A stretch of DNA of 64,000 bases from an uncultured delta proteobacterium (GTDB lineage: Bacteria; Desulfobacterota; BSN033; UBA1163), in NCBI GenBank assembly GCA_963708295.1, contig CAVPSJ010000004.1, positions 448,001 to 512,000 of the forward strand. The letters are read 5' to 3'. Under the pieces are notes generated by a model, which saw only the letters and a list, made by a program, of their open reading frames with translations, searched no databases and was not told where the DNA came from. Shown one piece after another: positions 48,035 to 53,135 of the stretch. Position 1 is the stretch's first letter. Every line of letters starts with the position of its first letter. The position numbers and the translations under genes are program-made.

Positions 48035-48063
48035 TTGACAGAGTAAACATATTGTATTATATT
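48035..48063 (+). promoter_or_regulatory. Sigma70 promoter upstream of the RHH-pom cluster
   Basis: TTGACA-N17-TATATT, overlapped by TATTGT direct repeats. Confidence 0.7.
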
Positions 48064-48093
48064 GTATTGTAAATTTGGCTGGAGGGGATCTGT

Positions 48094-48276
48094 TTGCCAG
48101 AGAAGAAGATCGCCCGTACGATCTACATTAAAGACGTGCAATTGGAGGCTTTGAAGAGACTATCCGAGAAGACCAAAGTCCCCCAGTCTGTCTATGTCAG
48201 GGAGGCCTTGGATATGCTATTGGAGAAATATTCGGAACAGTTGAAATTTGAATTCAAAGAATATTTCAAAGGATAA
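48094..48276 (+). CDS. Ribbon-helix-helix protein, CdbA-like
   Basis: KKIARTIYI..QLEALKRLSEKTKVPQSVYVREALDMLLEKY resembles M. xanthus CdbA as recalled (KKxSTTIYI...KTKVPVAEYIRQGIDLVLEKY). RBS GGAGG, TTG start. Confidence 0.8.
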   Translation: MPEKKIARTIYIKDVQLEALKRLSEKTKVPQSVYVREALDMLLEKYSEQLKFEFKEYFKG

Positions 48277-48318
48277 TTCTCTTAAGGCATCTCAAGGCAT
48301 GGAAGGAATGATAACAGA

Positions 48319-49056
48319 GTGGATTGTTTCCGATTGGCTTATTTGAAATCGCCAGGGTTAGAAAAGGGCTTTGAAGAGTCTTTCCCGTCCGATACCAACG
48401 GGAAAGTTGCGAGTTCCTCCATCCCTCCTTCGGGAGATCAGATCCCCGTGACCCTCTCTTCTGAAGCCGTTCTGAGGCAGGCCAAGATTGATCTGAAGCA
48501 CCCCGATCGGCAGGTGAGAATCTTGGCGACAAGATATTATTTGGAAAAATCCTATCCCTCCATCCCTCTGTCTCTCCTCCAGGAAATTTTGTCTGACCGA
48601 GATCCAGATGTCAGATCTCAAGCCCTTCGTTCTCTTATTAAATTTCGGAGCCCCATCGTCCCCCCTTTGCTGCGAAAATATCTTAAGGATAGCGACCCGT
48701 GGGTCAGGATCGCCGCCCTCCGAGGAATGTTTCAATTTCAGGAGAAGATCGACCTGAACATCTTTCTGCGATTCTTGAGCGATGACTCTACCTGGGTGAG
48801 GCGGAAGGTGGCCACCTTATTGGGATGGGCTCAAATAGAGGGTGCCCTACCGATCCTGAAGGAGTTGTCAAGGGATGCCCATTCCATGGTGAGAAGAGCA
48901 GCCCTTTTTTCCCTGGCAACCCTTTATCCCGACGAGAGTGAGAATCTCTTGATGGAGGCCATGACCGATCCAGACCCGGAACTTCGAAAGTGGGCCAAAA
49001 CGACGTTAGAGAAAACATTGACCAGGCCGTCTAAAAGGAAGGACGGCTTCTCTTAA
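48319..49056 (+). CDS. HEAT-repeat protein, PomY-like by position
   Basis: Repeats LSDRDPDVRSQAL, LKDSDPWVRIAAL, LSDDSTWVRRKVA, SRDAHSMVRRAAL, MTDPDPELRKWA. Lies directly upstream of the PomZ-like ATPase. Confidence 0.75.
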   Translation: MDCFRLAYLKSPGLEKGFEESFPSDTNGKVASSSIPPSGDQIPVTLSSEAVLRQAKIDLKHPDRQVRILATRYYLEKSYPSIPLSLLQEILSDRDPDVRSQALRSLIKFRSPIVPPLLRKYLKDSDPWVRIAALRGMFQFQEKIDLNIFLRFLSDDSTWVRRKVATLLGWAQIEGALPILKELSRDAHSMVRRAALFSLATLYPDESENLLMEAMTDPDPELRKWAKTTLEKTLTRPSKRKDGFS

Positions 49057-49079
49057 GAACCGAGGTTGAGACGAAAAAA

Positions 49080-50096
49080 GTGCCGATGACAGCCCAATCG
49101 CTGCCTCTGATTCAAAAAGCAGAGATCTTGAGAGATACCGTCTACTCGCCGACGGCTTTTGCCAACCTCCTTGGGATTTCGAAACATGAGCTCCTTGAGA
49201 AAGAGTCGGAAGGAATCCTCCCTGCTGCAAAGAGGAATTTGAATCGGGACCGCTACTATAAGCCGGAAGATGTCACCCGATATAGAAACGCCCTGGGGCT
49301 TGACTCTCCCATCAAGTCCATACGAAAGCAGCTCTTTCTCAACTTCAAGGGGGGAACAGGGAAGAGCACCATATCCGCCTCCTACGGTTTTCGCCTTGCC
49401 CAGATGGGAGTTCGAACACTGTTGATCGATTTGGATCCACAAGGCCACCTCACCCAATGCCTGGGCCTCAATAGTCAACAATTTTCAAAAACCCTGTTCA
49501 GTGCCTTGATCGAGAAGGAAGAGATTGAAAAAATTATCGTCAAAACAGACCTCCCCACATTGGATGTCATCCCCTCGAACCTCAACCTCTCACCCGTGGA
49601 ACTCTCGCTCTTCTCCATGAATTCGAGAGAGTTTCGATTGAGGAGGCTTATCTCTTCTCTGGAGAAGAACTACGAGCTGATTGTGATGGACGCCTCCCCC
49701 AGCATTGGACTCTTAAACCTGAATGCGATCCTTGCCTCGAATGATCTCATCATTCCCGTCCTAGCCGATTTCCTTTCCTATCACGGTCTCAAGATCCTTT
49801 TCGAGACCCTCTCCACGATCGAAGAGGACTTCTCTTTTGTCTTTGAGAATATTTTCATCTTCCTGAATCGTTACAATGAATCCCATCGAATCTGCAAACG
49901 TTCGAAGAAGGCCCTGGAAACCCACTATGAGCAGTATCTCCTCAACACGGTGATCCGGCAGGATACAAAGATTGCTGAGGCTACGAGTCAAGGGACCCCG
50001 ATTTTTCTTTTCGCTCAATCGTCAAAGGGGGCGGTGGATATCCAGAGCCTGATTGAGGAAATATTAGCTTTGAAAGGAGTAGATCATGTCGGATGA
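49080..50096 (+). CDS. pomZ: ParA/MinD-family ATPase with N-terminal MerR-like HTH, PomZ ortholog candidate
   Basis: Deviant Walker A KGGTGKST and DLDPQG. Segments RKQLFLNFKGGTGK, GLLNLNA, PVLADFLSYHGLKILFET, IRQDTK and SSKGAVDIQ match my recollection of M. xanthus PomZ/AgmE. Confidence 0.8.
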   Translation: MPMTAQSLPLIQKAEILRDTVYSPTAFANLLGISKHELLEKESEGILPAAKRNLNRDRYYKPEDVTRYRNALGLDSPIKSIRKQLFLNFKGGTGKSTISASYGFRLAQMGVRTLLIDLDPQGHLTQCLGLNSQQFSKTLFSALIEKEEIEKIIVKTDLPTLDVIPSNLNLSPVELSLFSMNSREFRLRRLISSLEKNYELIVMDASPSIGLLNLNAILASNDLIIPVLADFLSYHGLKILFETLSTIEEDFSFVFENIFIFLNRYNESHRICKRSKKALETHYEQYLLNTVIRQDTKIAEATSQGTPIFLFAQSSKGAVDIQSLIEEILALKGVDHVG

Positions 50097-50418
50097 ATTT
50101 ACCAACAACGTCGCACAAAAATTTCCCAACACGCTAAGTAAAGAGCCTATCGAAAGGCCATGGGATGTTTCGGAACCCAAGTCTATCTCCCCTCTGAGGA
50201 AGCCTATGGAAGAGTCCAAAAAGAATGATTTAGCAGAGCGCGTCGATATGCTCTATTCTGAGCTTCGTTCCTCGTTGACGGTTCGATCCGCCCTGGAATT
50301 CGACCTAAAGAAGGCCAACCGCATTCTGGAAGAAGTCAACCGGGTTAAAGCGGAAGTGGAAAAGGTCGTAGAAATGTTAAGGGTGATGGATGAATACATG
50401 AAAGAACGGATGAAGTAA
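50086..50418 (+). CDS. Short PomX-like coiled-coil protein
   Basis: N-terminal FTNNVAQKFP. The segment VDMLYSELRSSLTVRSALEFDL parallels IEDLHGQLLASAQTKKALEMDL of the next gene. RBS AAGGAG; overlaps the ATPase stop. Confidence 0.7.
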   Translation: MSDEFTNNVAQKFPNTLSKEPIERPWDVSEPKSISPLRKPMEESKKNDLAERVDMLYSELRSSLTVRSALEFDLKKANRILEEVNRVKAEVEKVVEMLRVMDEYMKERMK

Positions 50419-50492
50419 TCTCCTTCCCGATCTTTCTCAAGGGCTGAAAATGGAAAGAGGAGGAAGGGCCAAGCGGTTGAGGAGGAAAACGG

Positions 50493-51329
50493 ATGAAGCC
50501 AAGAATTCAGACGGCCACGGCGGATGGTTTCGAAACGAACGTCGCCCAAAAGATGCCGAAGATTAGAAAGCTGGAAGAACCCCATACCCTCATCCTGGAG
50601 CAGGACTTCCCGCGGCAGGAAAAAGAAGGCGATCAAACACCCATCGATGATCAAACGTTCTTCCCGGAAATGAGTCTTTCGGAAAAACAGGCAGAGAGAA
50701 AGGCGATTTTTGAGTCTTCTCAGAAAGGGATCGCATCGGAATCGAGTCTGGACGTCCTGAAATTGATCGAAGACCTTCACGGTCAACTTCTCGCATCGGC
50801 TCAGACCAAGAAGGCCCTGGAGATGGATCTGGCTTCCTACAAGAAGAGTATCCAACAATTAAGCCAGGACAATCAGGAATTGCGCCGCCAGTGGGAGGCC
50901 CTGAGCAAAGAAGATCAGAAACTCAAAGAAATCCAGTCCGAATCGATCTATCTCCAAGAAGAACACACGGATGCCTTAGAGAGAATCAAAGAGTTTCAGC
51001 AGGAAATGAGAGAGATGAAGAAAGCCTTGACCCGGGTCACCCAAGAAAGAGAGGAAGCCTTGGATCGAATTCGTGAACTGGAATCCCAGGTCGAGCAGAC
51101 TGAGGTCATGAAGATCAAGGGCAAACTAAAAGAGAGAGAGGCCTCCCTTTTCTCCGAGGAGAACCGGGAGCTTCAGTCCAAGCTGGAAGAGGCCATCGCT
51201 CGCAATACGGACCTGGAGAAGAAGTATGAAGCCTTGAAGAAGTCCTTTGGTGAAGTCAGAGAATCGCTGACCTTTTTGAGGGATTCCTGTAAGGCAAATT
51301 ATTACAACCTTTCCGAAAGCGCCGATTAA
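50493..51329 (+). CDS. pomX: PomX-like protein (N-terminal activator peptide, linker, long C-terminal coiled coil)
   Basis: FETNVAQKMPKIR versus recalled PomX N-peptide FEQNVSRAKPRLR; about 190-aa heptad-rich C-terminus; RBS GAGGAGG. Confidence 0.7.
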   Translation: MKPRIQTATADGFETNVAQKMPKIRKLEEPHTLILEQDFPRQEKEGDQTPIDDQTFFPEMSLSEKQAERKAIFESSQKGIASESSLDVLKLIEDLHGQLLASAQTKKALEMDLASYKKSIQQLSQDNQELRRQWEALSKEDQKLKEIQSESIYLQEEHTDALERIKEFQQEMREMKKALTRVTQEREEALDRIRELESQVEQTEVMKIKGKLKEREASLFSEENRELQSKLEEAIARNTDLEKKYEALKKSFGEVRESLTFLRDSCKANYYNLSESAD

Positions 51330-51446: not shown

Positions 51447-53135
51447 TTGAAAATTCGATTAATTGATCCGGCGTACCAACATCCTTATATTAGCCACTCA
51501 CAAAAGGTGATTAAGGACATCTGGTTTGCTCGCCTCACACTGACCGCGCTGGCTGCCCTCACCCCCTCCGAGATCGAAGTGAAGATCACCGATGAGAATG
51601 TGGACCCAATTGACTTTGAAGAGGATGTGGATCTCGTCGGCCTGACCGGAATGGTCATGCATGCTCCACGGGCCTATCAAATTGCGCAGAAGTTTCGTCA
51701 AAGGGGAATCCCGGTCGTCATGGGTGGGCCTCACGCCTCAAGCCTTCCCCTCGAAGCCAAGGCACATGTGGATGCGGTGGTGATCGGTGAGGCGGAGGAT
51801 GTCTGGAAAGGGTTAATTGAAGATTACAAGAAGGGATGCCTCAAACCCTTTTATCGGAACGATCACTTCTGCTCGATGAAAAGACTTCCCTTTCCGAGGC
51901 TTGATCTCCTTCGGAAAGATGCTTATATGACGGTCAACTGCGTCCAGACAACCCGCGGCTGCCCTCATCAATGCGATTTTTGTCATGTCACCCATTTCTT
52001 CGGAAAGACCTACCGATGTCGACCCGTGGAAGAGGTGATCGAGGAGGTGGAACGTTTAGACGGTGAGTTTGTTGTCTTCATCGACGACAATATCGCCGGG
52101 AACCGCCAATATGCGAGGGAACTCTTCACGCAATTAAAGCCCCTCAGGAAAAAATGGGCCAGCCAGGCCAGTATGACGCTGACCCGAGACCCCGAACTTC
52201 TGAAACTCGCTGCGGAGAGCGGATGCGTTTCTCTGTTCATGGGGGTAGAGTCTCTGTCTGAGGAAAACTTGAAGGAGGTGAATAAAACCTTTAATCGAGT
52301 TTCCCAATTTGACGAGGCCATGAAGGCCGTTCACGACCACGACATCATGATCCTGGCCGGGTTCATTTTTGGGCTGGATCATGATGATGAAGGGGTCTTC
52401 GAAAGAACGCTCCGGTTCTGTGAACGGAACCGAATTGAACTGCCCACTTTCTTCATTCTTACCCCCTTGCCCGGGACAGCCTTATTTCAAAGGATGGAGT
52501 CCGAGGGCAGGCTCCTGCACAAGGATTGGGGGCAATATAACGGAGCCACCGTCGTTTTCAAGCCCAGGTTGATGACCGAGGAAACACTCCAGCGCGGATT
52601 TAATTGGGCATGCAAGGAGGGCTATTCCTGGAACTCCATCTTTAAGAGGGTTTTCCACCCCCAACAACGATTCTTTACAAGGGTGGTTTCAAATATTGCC
52701 TATCGAAGTATCGCACGAAGAACACCGGAGGGTTATCTTCCAAGCCTTTCACGGATTTTGCAGAAGATGAACGATACTCTCCCTCTCGAGAATACCCGGG
52801 ATTTGATTCAACAAGTCGGCGAGAAGATTACAGAGAAGAAACTTCTGATTGGTCAGAAAGCAGCCGATACGCTGAGACTCTATTCTATTTATAACGAGCG
52901 GCTTAAGACGCTTTTCGTCAGACTGGAAGGGTCCATGGATCGGGAAGCGGCGAAGGAACTGGTGAAAAGGCTCAAAGGGGTATTAAACGTGAAGATCCAA
53001 AAAGTCATCCTTGACTTTAAGGATGTGGGAGCATTTTCCTCGGAGGCAATTGCCCTGCTTTCCAGAAAGGGCCTTCTTCAAACAGAAGAAGGGAAACTTT
53101 GGATCGCTGTGAATCTACCGGGTATCCGTGATTAA
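51447..53135 (+). CDS. B12-binding-domain radical SAM protein with C-terminal STAS-like domain
   Basis: VVMGGPHAS, VIGEAE, TTRGCPHQCDFC (CxxxCxxC), FIDDNI, GVES, FIFGLDHD, TPLPGT. Tail VRLEGSMD...VILDFKDVGAFSSEAI. Confidence 0.9.
   Translation: MKIRLIDPAYQHPYISHSQKVIKDIWFARLTLTALAALTPSEIEVKITDENVDPIDFEEDVDLVGLTGMVMHAPRAYQIAQKFRQRGIPVVMGGPHASSLPLEAKAHVDAVVIGEAEDVWKGLIEDYKKGCLKPFYRNDHFCSMKRLPFPRLDLLRKDAYMTVNCVQTTRGCPHQCDFCHVTHFFGKTYRCRPVEEVIEEVERLDGEFVVFIDDNIAGNRQYARELFTQLKPLRKKWASQASMTLTRDPELLKLAAESGCVSLFMGVESLSEENLKEVNKTFNRVSQFDEAMKAVHDHDIMILAGFIFGLDHDDEGVFERTLRFCERNRIELPTFFILTPLPGTALFQRMESEGRLLHKDWGQYNGATVVFKPRLMTEETLQRGFNWACKEGYSWNSIFKRVFHPQQRFFTRVVSNIAYRSIARRTPEGYLPSLSRILQKMNDTLPLENTRDLIQQVGEKITEKKLLIGQKAADTLRLYSIYNERLKTLFVRLEGSMDREAAKELVKRLKGVLNVKIQKVILDFKDVGAFSSEAIALLSRKGLLQTEEGKLWIAVNLPGIRD

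Follow-up and report, generated by a model that had tools for sequence, protein, structure and literature searches.

A candidate Pom-type positioning module with two PomX-like proteins in an uncultured lineage of Desulfobacterota

Results

A HEAT-ATPase-coiled-coil operon in an uncultured delta proteobacterium

We analyzed a 64,000-nucleotide stretch of DNA from an uncultured delta proteobacterium (contig CAVPSJ010000004.1 of assembly GCA_963708295.1, positions 448,001 to 512,000 of the forward strand; hereafter the window), in which a group of five genes resembles the pomYZX genes of Myxococcus xanthus. The host genome comprises 4.95 Mb in 20 contigs and is 91% complete, and the GC content of the region is 0.47-0.49. 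As shown in Table 1, the five open reading frames (ORFs) lie on the + strand, separated by gaps of 42, 23-29, and 74 nt and by one overlap of 11 nt, which is shared by the stop of the ATPase gene and the start of the gene for the 110-amino acid (aa) protein. In relatives, the ATPase starts at the ATG that corresponds to position 49086, which is likely the start in the window too and yields a protein of 336 aa.

The original prediction, made from the DNA sequence, had described five co-directional genes behind a promoter, encoding a ribbon-helix-helix (RHH) protein, a HEAT-repeat protein, a helix-turn-helix (HTH)-bearing ParA ATPase, and two coiled-coil proteins, and all five ORFs were found where it had placed them. 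It had also expected standard labels to be uninformative, and the database names were indeed 'ParA family', 'chromosome partitioning protein', and 'hypothetical'. None of the NCBIfam models scored above its cut-off on the operon proteins (the top match being plasmid RepA, TIGR03453), Pfam returned only weak coiled-coil-type matches for the 110-aa and 278-aa proteins, and for the coiled-coil protein the source annotations wrongly give 'chromosome segregation ATPase' or 'SbcCD subunit'.

Table 1. Features of the candidate Pom-type operon, in positions of the window
Feature	Position	Strand	Evidence
Sigma-70-like promoter (putative), TTGACA-17-TATATT	48035..48063	+	11/12 consensus positions
Operator-like direct-repeat element TATTGTATTATATTGT, 16 nt	48050..48065	+	overlaps -10 box
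RHH_3 protein, 60 aa	48094..48276	+	Pfam RHH_3 E 1.2e-16; TTG start
HEAT-repeat protein, 245 aa, PomY position	48319..49056	+	HEAT_2 E 2.7e-33
PomZ-like ParA/MinD ATPase, 338-aa ORF	49080..50096	+	AAA_31/ParA-type E 5.4e-45
Winged HTH N-domain of ATPase, residues 20-70 of 336-aa form	49143..49295	+	AlphaFold2 model, Pfam
Short PomX-like paralog, 110 aa	50086..50418	+	N-peptide MSDEFTNNVAQKFPNT, RPWDV motif, short coiled coil
PomX-like coiled-coil protein, 278 aa	50493..51329	+	activating-peptide motif residues 11-26 (50523-50570)

The ATPase groups with PomZ

To place the ATPase among its relatives, we used a PomZ reference that was identified from search output by means of the residues published for M. 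xanthus PomZ. With the ATPase as query, 1.84 billion cluster representatives yielded ~20 clusters at 200-311 bits and 38-53% identity, and in the same search PomZ-type clusters scored 298-311 bits compared with a generic ParA background of no more than 165 bits. Of 25 PomZ residues published with their numbers for the M. xanthus protein, 19 are present at exactly those numbers in one near cluster (P0123). In a contig scan by Walker A pattern, a locus from a 'Myxococcaceae bacterium' metagenome-assembled genome (MAG; locus L032) was the top match among those listed, with 49% identity and E 3e-95, and the next matches listed did not exceed 33% identity. Within a sample of the order to which L032 belongs, 52 of 61 genomes matched the ATPase at E <= 1e-60 with 46-52% identity. 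The PomZ of a 9.2-Mb genome from the Myxococcales sample (locus L129) has 24 of the 25 published PomZ residues, and the window ATPase is 48.5% identical to it (150/309) with no gap from QLFLNFKGGTGK (Walker A) to the C terminus. The catalytic and DNA-binding residues of PomZ (G62, K66, D90, and K268) all recur unchanged in the window ATPase, as G91, K95, D119, and K297 (338-aa ORF numbering).

According to a 2025 preprint, the residues modelled to contact the PomX peptide and the PomY alpha5 helix are conserved in PomZ but not in ParA or MinD; the activator pockets that we compared are those of the published AlphaFold 3 models, not of solved structures. At the 13 residues of the PomX-peptide pocket, the window ATPase has 6 identities and 6 conservative replacements, compared with 1/13 for the genome's own Soj. 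The PomY alpha5 pocket, of 8 residues, shows 5 identities and 3 conservative replacements in the window ATPase, compared with 1/8 for Soj and 1-2/8 for generic ParA proteins. The MinD model scored the window ATPase at 38.7 bits against a cut-off of 212.9.

We then compared the ATPases in a maximum-likelihood tree of 86 rows, from which four long-branch rows were left out. Here and below, f1, f6, f10, f45, and f59 denote families of the window's phylum, f1 being the window's own. The rows were taken from 9 of 25 f1 loci, 1 f10, 6 f45, and 2 f59 loci, and 16 of 30 myxobacterial loci, together with 21 near clusters, every fourth cluster of P0150-P0270, and the ParA-like proteins of the window's genome and of a Myxococcaceae genome. 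On one side of a branch (ultrafast bootstrap 97; Shimodaira-Hasegawa-like approximate likelihood ratio test, SH-aLRT, 79.6) stood 40 rows, consisting of the f1, f10, and f45 ATPases, myxobacterial PomZ, and 8 unnamed clusters, with canonical ParA, including the genome's own Soj, on the opposite side. A quick tree likewise gave canonical ParA a clade of its own (SH-aLRT 99). The Desulfobacterota ATPases are sister to myxobacterial PomZ, not nested inside it. Overall, the tree, the bit-score gap, and the pocket residues support the view that the ATPase belongs with PomZ and not with generic ParA.

The Desulfobacterota ATPases have unnamed sister clusters (P0121, P0125, P0127, P0128, and P0131). 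Three of these, P0127, P0128, and P0131, have in place of the HTH a lysine-rich extension of 150-330 residues with a coiled-coil segment, which may be a scaffold or DNA-binding part fused to the ATPase.

The N-terminal domain of the ATPase was recognized by Pfam as MerR_1 (residues 22-67, E 2.2e-4, 21.7 bits against a cut-off of 21.6) and HTH_17 (E 2.9e-3). In the AlphaFold2 model, for which the mean predicted local distance difference test score (pLDDT) was 88.0 and the predicted template modelling score was 0.88, this domain is built of a strand, helices 22-29 and 33-41, two strands, and helix 60-70, with a block pLDDT of 90-95. Foldseek placed Soj/ParA structures first for the ATPase domain, and ParA2 and P1 ParA aligned over 358-377 columns that include the N-domain. 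Relative to the window N-domain, Myxococcus-type PomZ has a 13-residue deletion, and Pfam detected no HTH in either of the two myxobacterial PomZ proteins tested.

Both coiled-coil proteins carry a PomX-type N-terminal peptide

We next turned to the two coiled-coil proteins. The 110-aa protein begins with MSDEFTNNVAQKFPNT, in which F5, N8, V9, and P14 stand in PomX register, and residues 11-26 of the 278-aa protein read DGFETNVAQKMPKIRK; its N-terminal peptide is GFETNVAQKMPKIRK. Both proteins have the core F-x-x-N-V-x4-P of the PomX activating peptide, and relatives keep the two peptides. The pattern F-x-x-[NS]-[VIL]-A-[QEKR]-[KR]-x-P occurred at only these two sites in 9.89 million six-frame residues of the genome. 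A stricter pattern, F[DE]x[NS][VIL]x4P[KR][ILVM][KR], which was derived from the myxobacterial peptides and leaves the four middle positions open, gave a single match in the same residues, in the 278-aa protein; it is not fully independent, because it was written after both peptide sets were known.

The same peptide marks the myxobacterial loci, in 29 of 30 of which the ORF immediately after pomZ begins M-[KR]-x-x-F-[ED]-x-N-[VIL]-x4-P-[RK]-x-[RK]. These 29 PomX N termini and the 278-aa protein have the core F-[DE]-x-N-V-x4-P-[KR]-[ILV]-[KR] in common. The Myxococcus-type PomX N terminus, MKKAFEQNVSRAKPRLR, fits the contact residues M1, K2, A4, F5, V9, K13, R15, and L16 given in the 2025 preprint. 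Outside f1, the downstream proteins of all 7 assessable Desulfobacterota loci start with a PomX-type core whose F is again residue 5. The single myxobacterial locus without a recognizable PomX N-peptide after pomZ comes from a Myxococcaceae MAG (L032 / L112, genome G041), in which the N-terminal coiled coil of PomY also lies in a different frame from the rest of PomY; frameshift errors in the MAG are a likely explanation for both oddities.

Beyond the peptide, a profile of the 278-aa family (28 sequences) matched one of myxobacterial PomX (18 sequences) with an hhalign probability of 96.3% and E 1.8e-9 over 121 coiled-coil columns, which take in the LIEDLH-QL and YL-EE-DAL segments. The 110-aa and 278-aa proteins are collinear with each other (BLASTP E 4e-5), and judged by their sequences they are paralogous. 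The N-terminal 36 aa of the 110-aa protein are 39% identical to the sole PomX-like protein of f45, and both contain the motif RPW[DN]V. The shared motif suggests that the gene was duplicated in f1 and f6 and that the two copies then divided their labour.

The f45 loci also contain a 77-82-aa coiled-coil ORF that overlaps the end of the PomX-like gene (L151:3299-3547, L152:3313-3555, L154:3306-3545, and L156:3321-3554). It showed no similarity to the window's 110-aa protein (E 6.0) and was ruled out as its counterpart on that ground.

These results bear out several parts of the original prediction, namely that the ATPase is a PomZ relative, that the two coiled-coil proteins share a conserved N-terminal peptide and are two PomX paralogs, and that the genes follow the order pomY-pomZ-pomX. 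The PomZ segments and the PomX peptide that it had cited were essentially right when compared with the myxobacterial loci.

The HEAT protein occupies the position of PomY

The HEAT gene is present in 25/25 f1 loci, and the orthologs of its product measure 217-253 aa. The gene lies 23-29 nt upstream of the ATPase gene, and myxobacterial pomY-pomZ loci are arranged alike. In the protein, a variable N terminus of ~45 residues is followed by the HEAT domain and a short basic tail. A profile of its family aligned end to end with the HEAT domain of PomY (hhalign E 1.1e-15). However, in a control against one Myxococcus-like genome the family profile scored an unrelated 901-aa HEAT protein at 73.2, the single PomY at 70.9, and another HEAT protein at 50.2, so the match loses any PomY-specific meaning because unrelated HEAT proteins of the same genome score alike. 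Consistent with this, a single-sequence search with the HEAT protein matched PomY in 5/5 Myxococcales genomes and never as the top HEAT match. The identification of the HEAT protein as PomY, which the original prediction had made, therefore stands for fold class and gene position and was dropped, as unproven, for sequence orthology.

In the 2025 preprint, PomY is described as an N-terminal coiled coil, the HEAT domain, a C-terminal disordered region with the alpha5 activator helix, and a globular C-domain. The 245-aa sequence of the window protein contains neither the coiled coil nor the disordered region with alpha5 nor the globular C-domain. The PomY parts that it lacks are reportedly tied to condensate formation and FtsZ enrichment.

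Residues 2-11 of the HEAT protein (48322-48350) contain an N-terminal peptide, RFRLxYLKS, that is kept in the aligned f1 orthologs and is followed by a variable linker of ~40 residues; it is absent from the f10 and f45 HEAT proteins. This peptide might serve for docking, for instance in the conserved alpha5-type pocket of the ATPase.

The module is conserved across families of Desulfobacterota

To assess how widely the module occurs, we searched for relatives of the window genes. Among 40 relatives, the ATPase was present in 23 of 24 f1 genomes at 80-91% identity. In 25 f1 loci the RHH, HEAT, ATPase, and 278-aa genes were each found in 25/25 and the 110-aa gene in 24/25. The order HEAT-ATPase-coiled-coil is kept in f1 (25/25), in f10, and in f45, as in Myxococcales. 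In f10 and f45 the module comprises a HEAT-type ORF of 217-234 aa, the ATPase, and a coiled-coil protein that starts M-x-[DN]-G-F-[DE]-x-[NS]-V-A, and in f6 the ATPase is followed by proteins of 106 and 294 aa, both of them peptide-tipped. A search with residues 1-45 of the 278-aa protein returned 38 close relatives; it required shared 5-residue words and so leaves distant lineages uncovered.

In a sample of 401 genomes of the phylum, the ATPase had 22 matches at E <= 1e-55, distributed over f1 (11, that is 10/11 plus the window's genome), f6 (1), f10 (1), f45 (6), and f59 (3). The three f59 genomes (35-37% identity) were dropped as Pom-like, since they have no HEAT gene and a different, membrane-anchored partner and fall outside the PomZ-like clade, which leaves a Pom-like module in four families and 19 of the 401 genomes. 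The f59 loci (L158:1330-2914, L159:1495-2872, and L160:1501-2897) encode a different HTH-ParA with a clear MerR match, and the partner of 125-136 aa has a basic start, M-x-K-x-K-P-[DN]-Y-[AT]-K-F-[IM]-K-K-P, and a hydrophobic end segment, so that f59 looks like another peptide-activated ParA system with a membrane-anchored partner.

The operon is flanked by genes for an MBL hydrolase, cspA, a radical-SAM protein, rpsU, an RRM protein, and a GltD-like protein, which are fully kept in 3 of 6 larger f1 regions and partly in the other 3. Because these housekeeping flanks are kept across f1 genera, the locus is chromosomal and stable. The product of the downstream gene (51447-53135) is a B12-binding radical-SAM protein that also has DUF4070 and, at its C terminus, a STAS domain; the gene adjoins the operon in 4 of the 6 larger f1 regions.

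All named close homologs of the ATPase and the 278-aa protein are 'Thermodesulfobacteriota bacterium' MAG proteins and not proteins of Myxococcota, which agrees with the non-myxobacterial origin originally proposed; their annotations read ParA family, AAA family ATPase, or hypothetical. Overall, the sequence comparisons support the presence of a Pom-like module with two PomX paralogs outside Myxococcota.

A promoter repeat and a small RHH protein precede the module

The promoter assignment is putative and is based on the match to consensus and on phylogenetic footprinting. The direct-repeat element that overlaps it is present as a single exact copy in the 4.95-Mb genome. Of 25 relatives, 19 have it without change and 24 with at most 2 mismatches, and in 18 of them TTGAC[AT] lies 8-14 nt to its 5' side. 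A second repeat-like site with 2 mismatches, GATTGTATTGTATTGT, lies on the - strand at G000:C11:73270 (G000 being the window's genome) and is a possible further target of the RHH protein.

The RHH gene is found in 25/25 f1 loci at 73-95% identity and was not detected beside the module in f10 and f45; it is thus specific to f1. Because the RHH gene coexists with a unique repeat element in its promoter, autoregulation is the simplest reading, and the RHH protein probably binds this repeat and autoregulates the operon.

The original prediction had called this first gene CdbA-like, after the c-di-GMP-binding RHH nucleoid protein of M. xanthus. Both are small ribbon-helix-helix DNA-binding proteins, and beyond that we detected no sequence likeness. 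A search of the PDB with the RHH protein found no RHH structure at E <= 10, in a copy of the database in which the presence of the CdbA entry was unconfirmed. In CdbA homologs, K8, S10, R27, and R30 are reported to be 100% conserved; at the same numbers the window protein has R, I, T, and P, compared by number only and without alignment. The three best RHH match loci of one Myxococcus-like genome contained no ORF that fits the published CdbA numbering, and the 51-53% identical myxobacterial homolog of the window protein is a different RHH at an unrelated locus. These comparisons do not support the CdbA-like label. The myxobacterial homolog itself is a 60-aa RHH_3 protein present in 5/5 Myxococcus-like genomes (L161-L165), where its gene has an NAD-dependent epimerase-like gene on one side and a lipoprotein gene on the other and is not near pomXYZ; it represents a conserved small RHH protein common to both phyla.

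Structure prediction and RNA data bearing on the module

To examine the predicted contact between peptide and ATPase, we modelled a dimer of the ATPase domain with ATP, Mg, and residues 1-45 of the 278-aa protein, alongside 3 controls. The interface score (ipSAE) was 0.42 compared with 0.00 for the top control, with a partner pLDDT of at least 46 and contact agreement of at least 67% between runs. The mark applied is reached by 58 of 80 solved complexes and by 2 of 110 mismatched pairs; a pass at or below 0.60 (7/80 plus both mismatches) is false more often than true where the pairing was not already probable, and the calibration is only rough here, our own alignments and riding ligands having been used. 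The prediction thus adds a small increment of weak support for a peptide-ATPase contact.

In metatranscriptome library X1, contigs of relatives were found at 48085-48655 (spanning from the RHH into the HEAT gene), 49938-50286 (spanning from the ATPase into the 110-aa gene), and 50517-50813. Library X4 contained no contigs of operon relatives, and libraries X2 and X6 are probably DNA.

Discussion

A Pom-type module that would most likely mark the division site

Taken together, the results lead us to put at roughly 60% the probability that the operon encodes a Pom-type ParA/MinD self-positioning module that is homologous to PomZ/PomX of M. xanthus and most likely marks the site of the FtsZ ring. 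The likeness to PomXYZ consists in the order of a HEAT protein, an ATPase, and a coiled-coil protein with an N-terminal activating peptide; in an ATPase that falls in the same clade as PomZ at 48.5% identity and keeps the DNA-binding lysine and most activator-pocket residues; in the peptide core F5-x-x-N8-V9-x4-P14-[KR]-[ILV]-[KR] and the coiled-coil core of PomX as matched by profile; and in a genome that has FtsZ (G000:C16:30307-31275) and in which no Min system was found.

We propose that the ATP-bound ATPase dimer would bind the nucleoid non-specifically, for which the conserved equivalent of the DNA-binding lysine K268 is available, and that the 278-aa protein would build a scaffold or cluster. 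Its N-peptide, GFETNVAQKMPKIRK, would dock in the cleft of the ATPase dimer and stimulate ATP hydrolysis, such that the cluster would move on the nucleoid by a flux or diffusion ratchet of the PomXYZ type and come to rest at mid-nucleoid. The HEAT protein may serve as an adaptor on the cluster, which would most likely mark the site of FtsZ-ring assembly, as in Myxococcus. The 110-aa paralog, which has the peptide core without basic residues after the proline, may be a second, non-canonical ATPase regulator or a tether, and the small RHH protein would probably autoregulate the operon through the promoter repeat.

Several observations weigh against this reading. Division-site positioning is predicted from homology alone, and the FtsZ link is the weakest step, because the HEAT protein is without the PomY parts for activation and FtsZ; its orthology to PomY is unsupported, and the ATPase-activating alpha5 part is among those missing. 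According to an eLife 2021 paper, the basic residues K13 and R15 of PomX are essential for ATPase activation in Myxococcus. At the position of K13 the 278-aa protein has M and the 110-aa protein F, with a lysine one position earlier, and at that of R15 they have K and N, respectively. The 278-aa protein also has 8 extra residues before the peptide, and M1 of PomX is modelled as a contact. Profile scores between coiled coils, such as the match to PomX, can be inflated by composition, and the SH-aLRT of 79.6 for the PomZ-like clade is just under the usual 80. One f1 genome that is 98% complete (G187) has no ATPase match at E <= 1e-55, possibly through loss or an assembly gap. The RNA signal, which comes from relatives' contigs in one library and for which DNA carry-over is possible, gives a hint of transcription at best.

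The state of the Min system does not help to decide the matter. No MinCDE was recognized in the 91%-complete genome (TIGR01968 gave nothing above cut-off, and TIGR01215 and PF03775 gave no match at all), and MinD is found in 0/19 of the genomes with a Pom-like module, where ~1.4 would be expected by chance. Because only 30 of the 401 sampled genomes of the phylum have MinD, its absence is uninformative, and we dropped it as support for a division role.

Alternative explanations

The strongest alternative accepts the same Pom-homologous module and gives it other cargo, such as a storage granule, a chemoreceptor array, another assembly, or the scaffold itself, with no link to FtsZ. ParA/MinD ATPases that are activated by N-peptides position many cargos, according to two papers (eLife 2021; Curr Opin 2024), and the absence from the 245-aa HEAT protein of the PomY parts for FtsZ and ATPase activation would fit such a role, as would the lack of an adjacent division gene. 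Yet no candidate cargo gene is conserved beside the module across f1, f10, and f45, and the operon neighbourhood contains no pointer to another cargo. For two of the three core proteins, the closest characterized relatives work in placing the division site, and the three-gene order is common to pomYZX. We regard this alternative as unlikely, although it deserves to be taken seriously.

Far less probable, in our estimation, is a DNA partition system of type Ia, in which the HTH-ParA would segregate a replicon and the RHH protein would act as centromere-binding adaptor, as ParG does with ParF. The N-terminal winged HTH resembles that of P1 ParA and ParA2, and the RHH gene comes first in the operon with a direct-repeat element upstream, but this element is a single copy within the promoter, the operon contains no ParB domain, and the RHH gene is missing from the module in f10 and f45. 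The top NCBIfam match is plasmid RepA (TIGR03453, E 9.7e-31), but the partition models remain far under their cut-offs (RepA 106.9 bits vs 348.45) and the ATPase groups with PomZ. The locus is also chromosomal with conserved housekeeping flanks, and a canonical gidB-parA-parB locus is present on another contig. The parB of that locus (L002:613-1474, genome G000, contig C17) is split between two frames that overlap, with ParB_N at 899-1474 and HTH_ParB plus ParB_C at 613-1071, through either an assembly frameshift or a broken gene.

That the likeness to PomX and PomZ is convergent or due to chance in an unrelated ParA-containing operon, as could be supposed from a short peptide and from unspecific HEAT and coiled-coil similarity, is highly improbable given the ungapped 48.5% ATPase identity with clade support, the pocket residues conserved unlike those of generic ParAs, the peptide motif occurring once in 9.89 million residues at the predicted place with its register kept across four families, and the profile match to the PomX core with shared gene order.

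Relation to known systems

The candidate Pom-type module of the window differs from PomXYZ in belonging to Thermodesulfobacteriota/Desulfobacterota and not Myxococcota. Its HEAT protein is a HEAT-only protein of 245 aa that is comparable to PomY by fold and position only. It has two PomX-type proteins instead of one, the short one without the basic residues, and the equivalent of K13 is not conserved in either. Its ATPase retains the winged-HTH N-domain in full, where Myxococcus-type PomZ has a shortened one. In f1 the operon starts with an RHH gene, and the function of the window system is predicted from its genes. The words 'streamlined and remodelled' used for it in the original prediction are a fair description.

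Type Ia ParAs (P1 ParA, F SopA, Vibrio cholerae ParA2, and repABC RepA) have in common with the window ATPase an N-terminal HTH fused to a ParA ATPase, and operon autoregulation is plausible in both. In contrast, identity in structural alignment is 16-20%, the window operon has no ParB or parS, and the partners of its ATPase are HEAT and coiled-coil proteins. A short N-terminal peptide grafted on an interaction domain is also described for ParB/Spo0J, MinE, ParG, McdB, and TlpT in the eLife 2021 paper, but we found no sequence relation to these, and the window peptide is of the PomX type.

Implications for positioning systems in Desulfobacterota

Very few systems regulate Z-ring placement positively, and PomXYZ is among them. 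In the literature searched, to the extent that its text was accessible, PomXYZ is described only from myxobacteria, and no report of the system outside them was found; supplementary ortholog tables were not covered by that search. A tentative joint reading, which as a whole we would sooner doubt than adopt, is that Pom-type positioning is not a myxobacterial invention but an older module, shared between Myxococcota and several families of Desulfobacterota by descent or ancient transfer. Under this reading, the ancestral core would comprise a HEAT-only adaptor, an HTH-bearing ParA, and a peptide-tipped coiled-coil scaffold, and the condensate-forming and activating regions of PomY would have been added later, in myxobacteria. 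Two PomX-type peptides, one basic and one non-basic, could provide a dual regulation of the ATPase that replaces that by PomX plus PomY, and the intact winged HTH, a relic in PomZ, might give sequence-specific anchoring or autoregulation.

Standard annotation gives no sign of a Pom-like system at such loci. The relatives of PomZ and PomX in four families of Desulfobacterota would widen the range of the system to anaerobes that are abundant, for the most part uncultured, and, in common with the bulk of their phylum, without Min. The relatives of the window ATPase point to an origin of PomZ from HTH-bearing ParAs, and a natural minimal version, with its HEAT-only partner and its scaffolds of 110 and 278 aa, can show which parts of PomY and PomX are essential.

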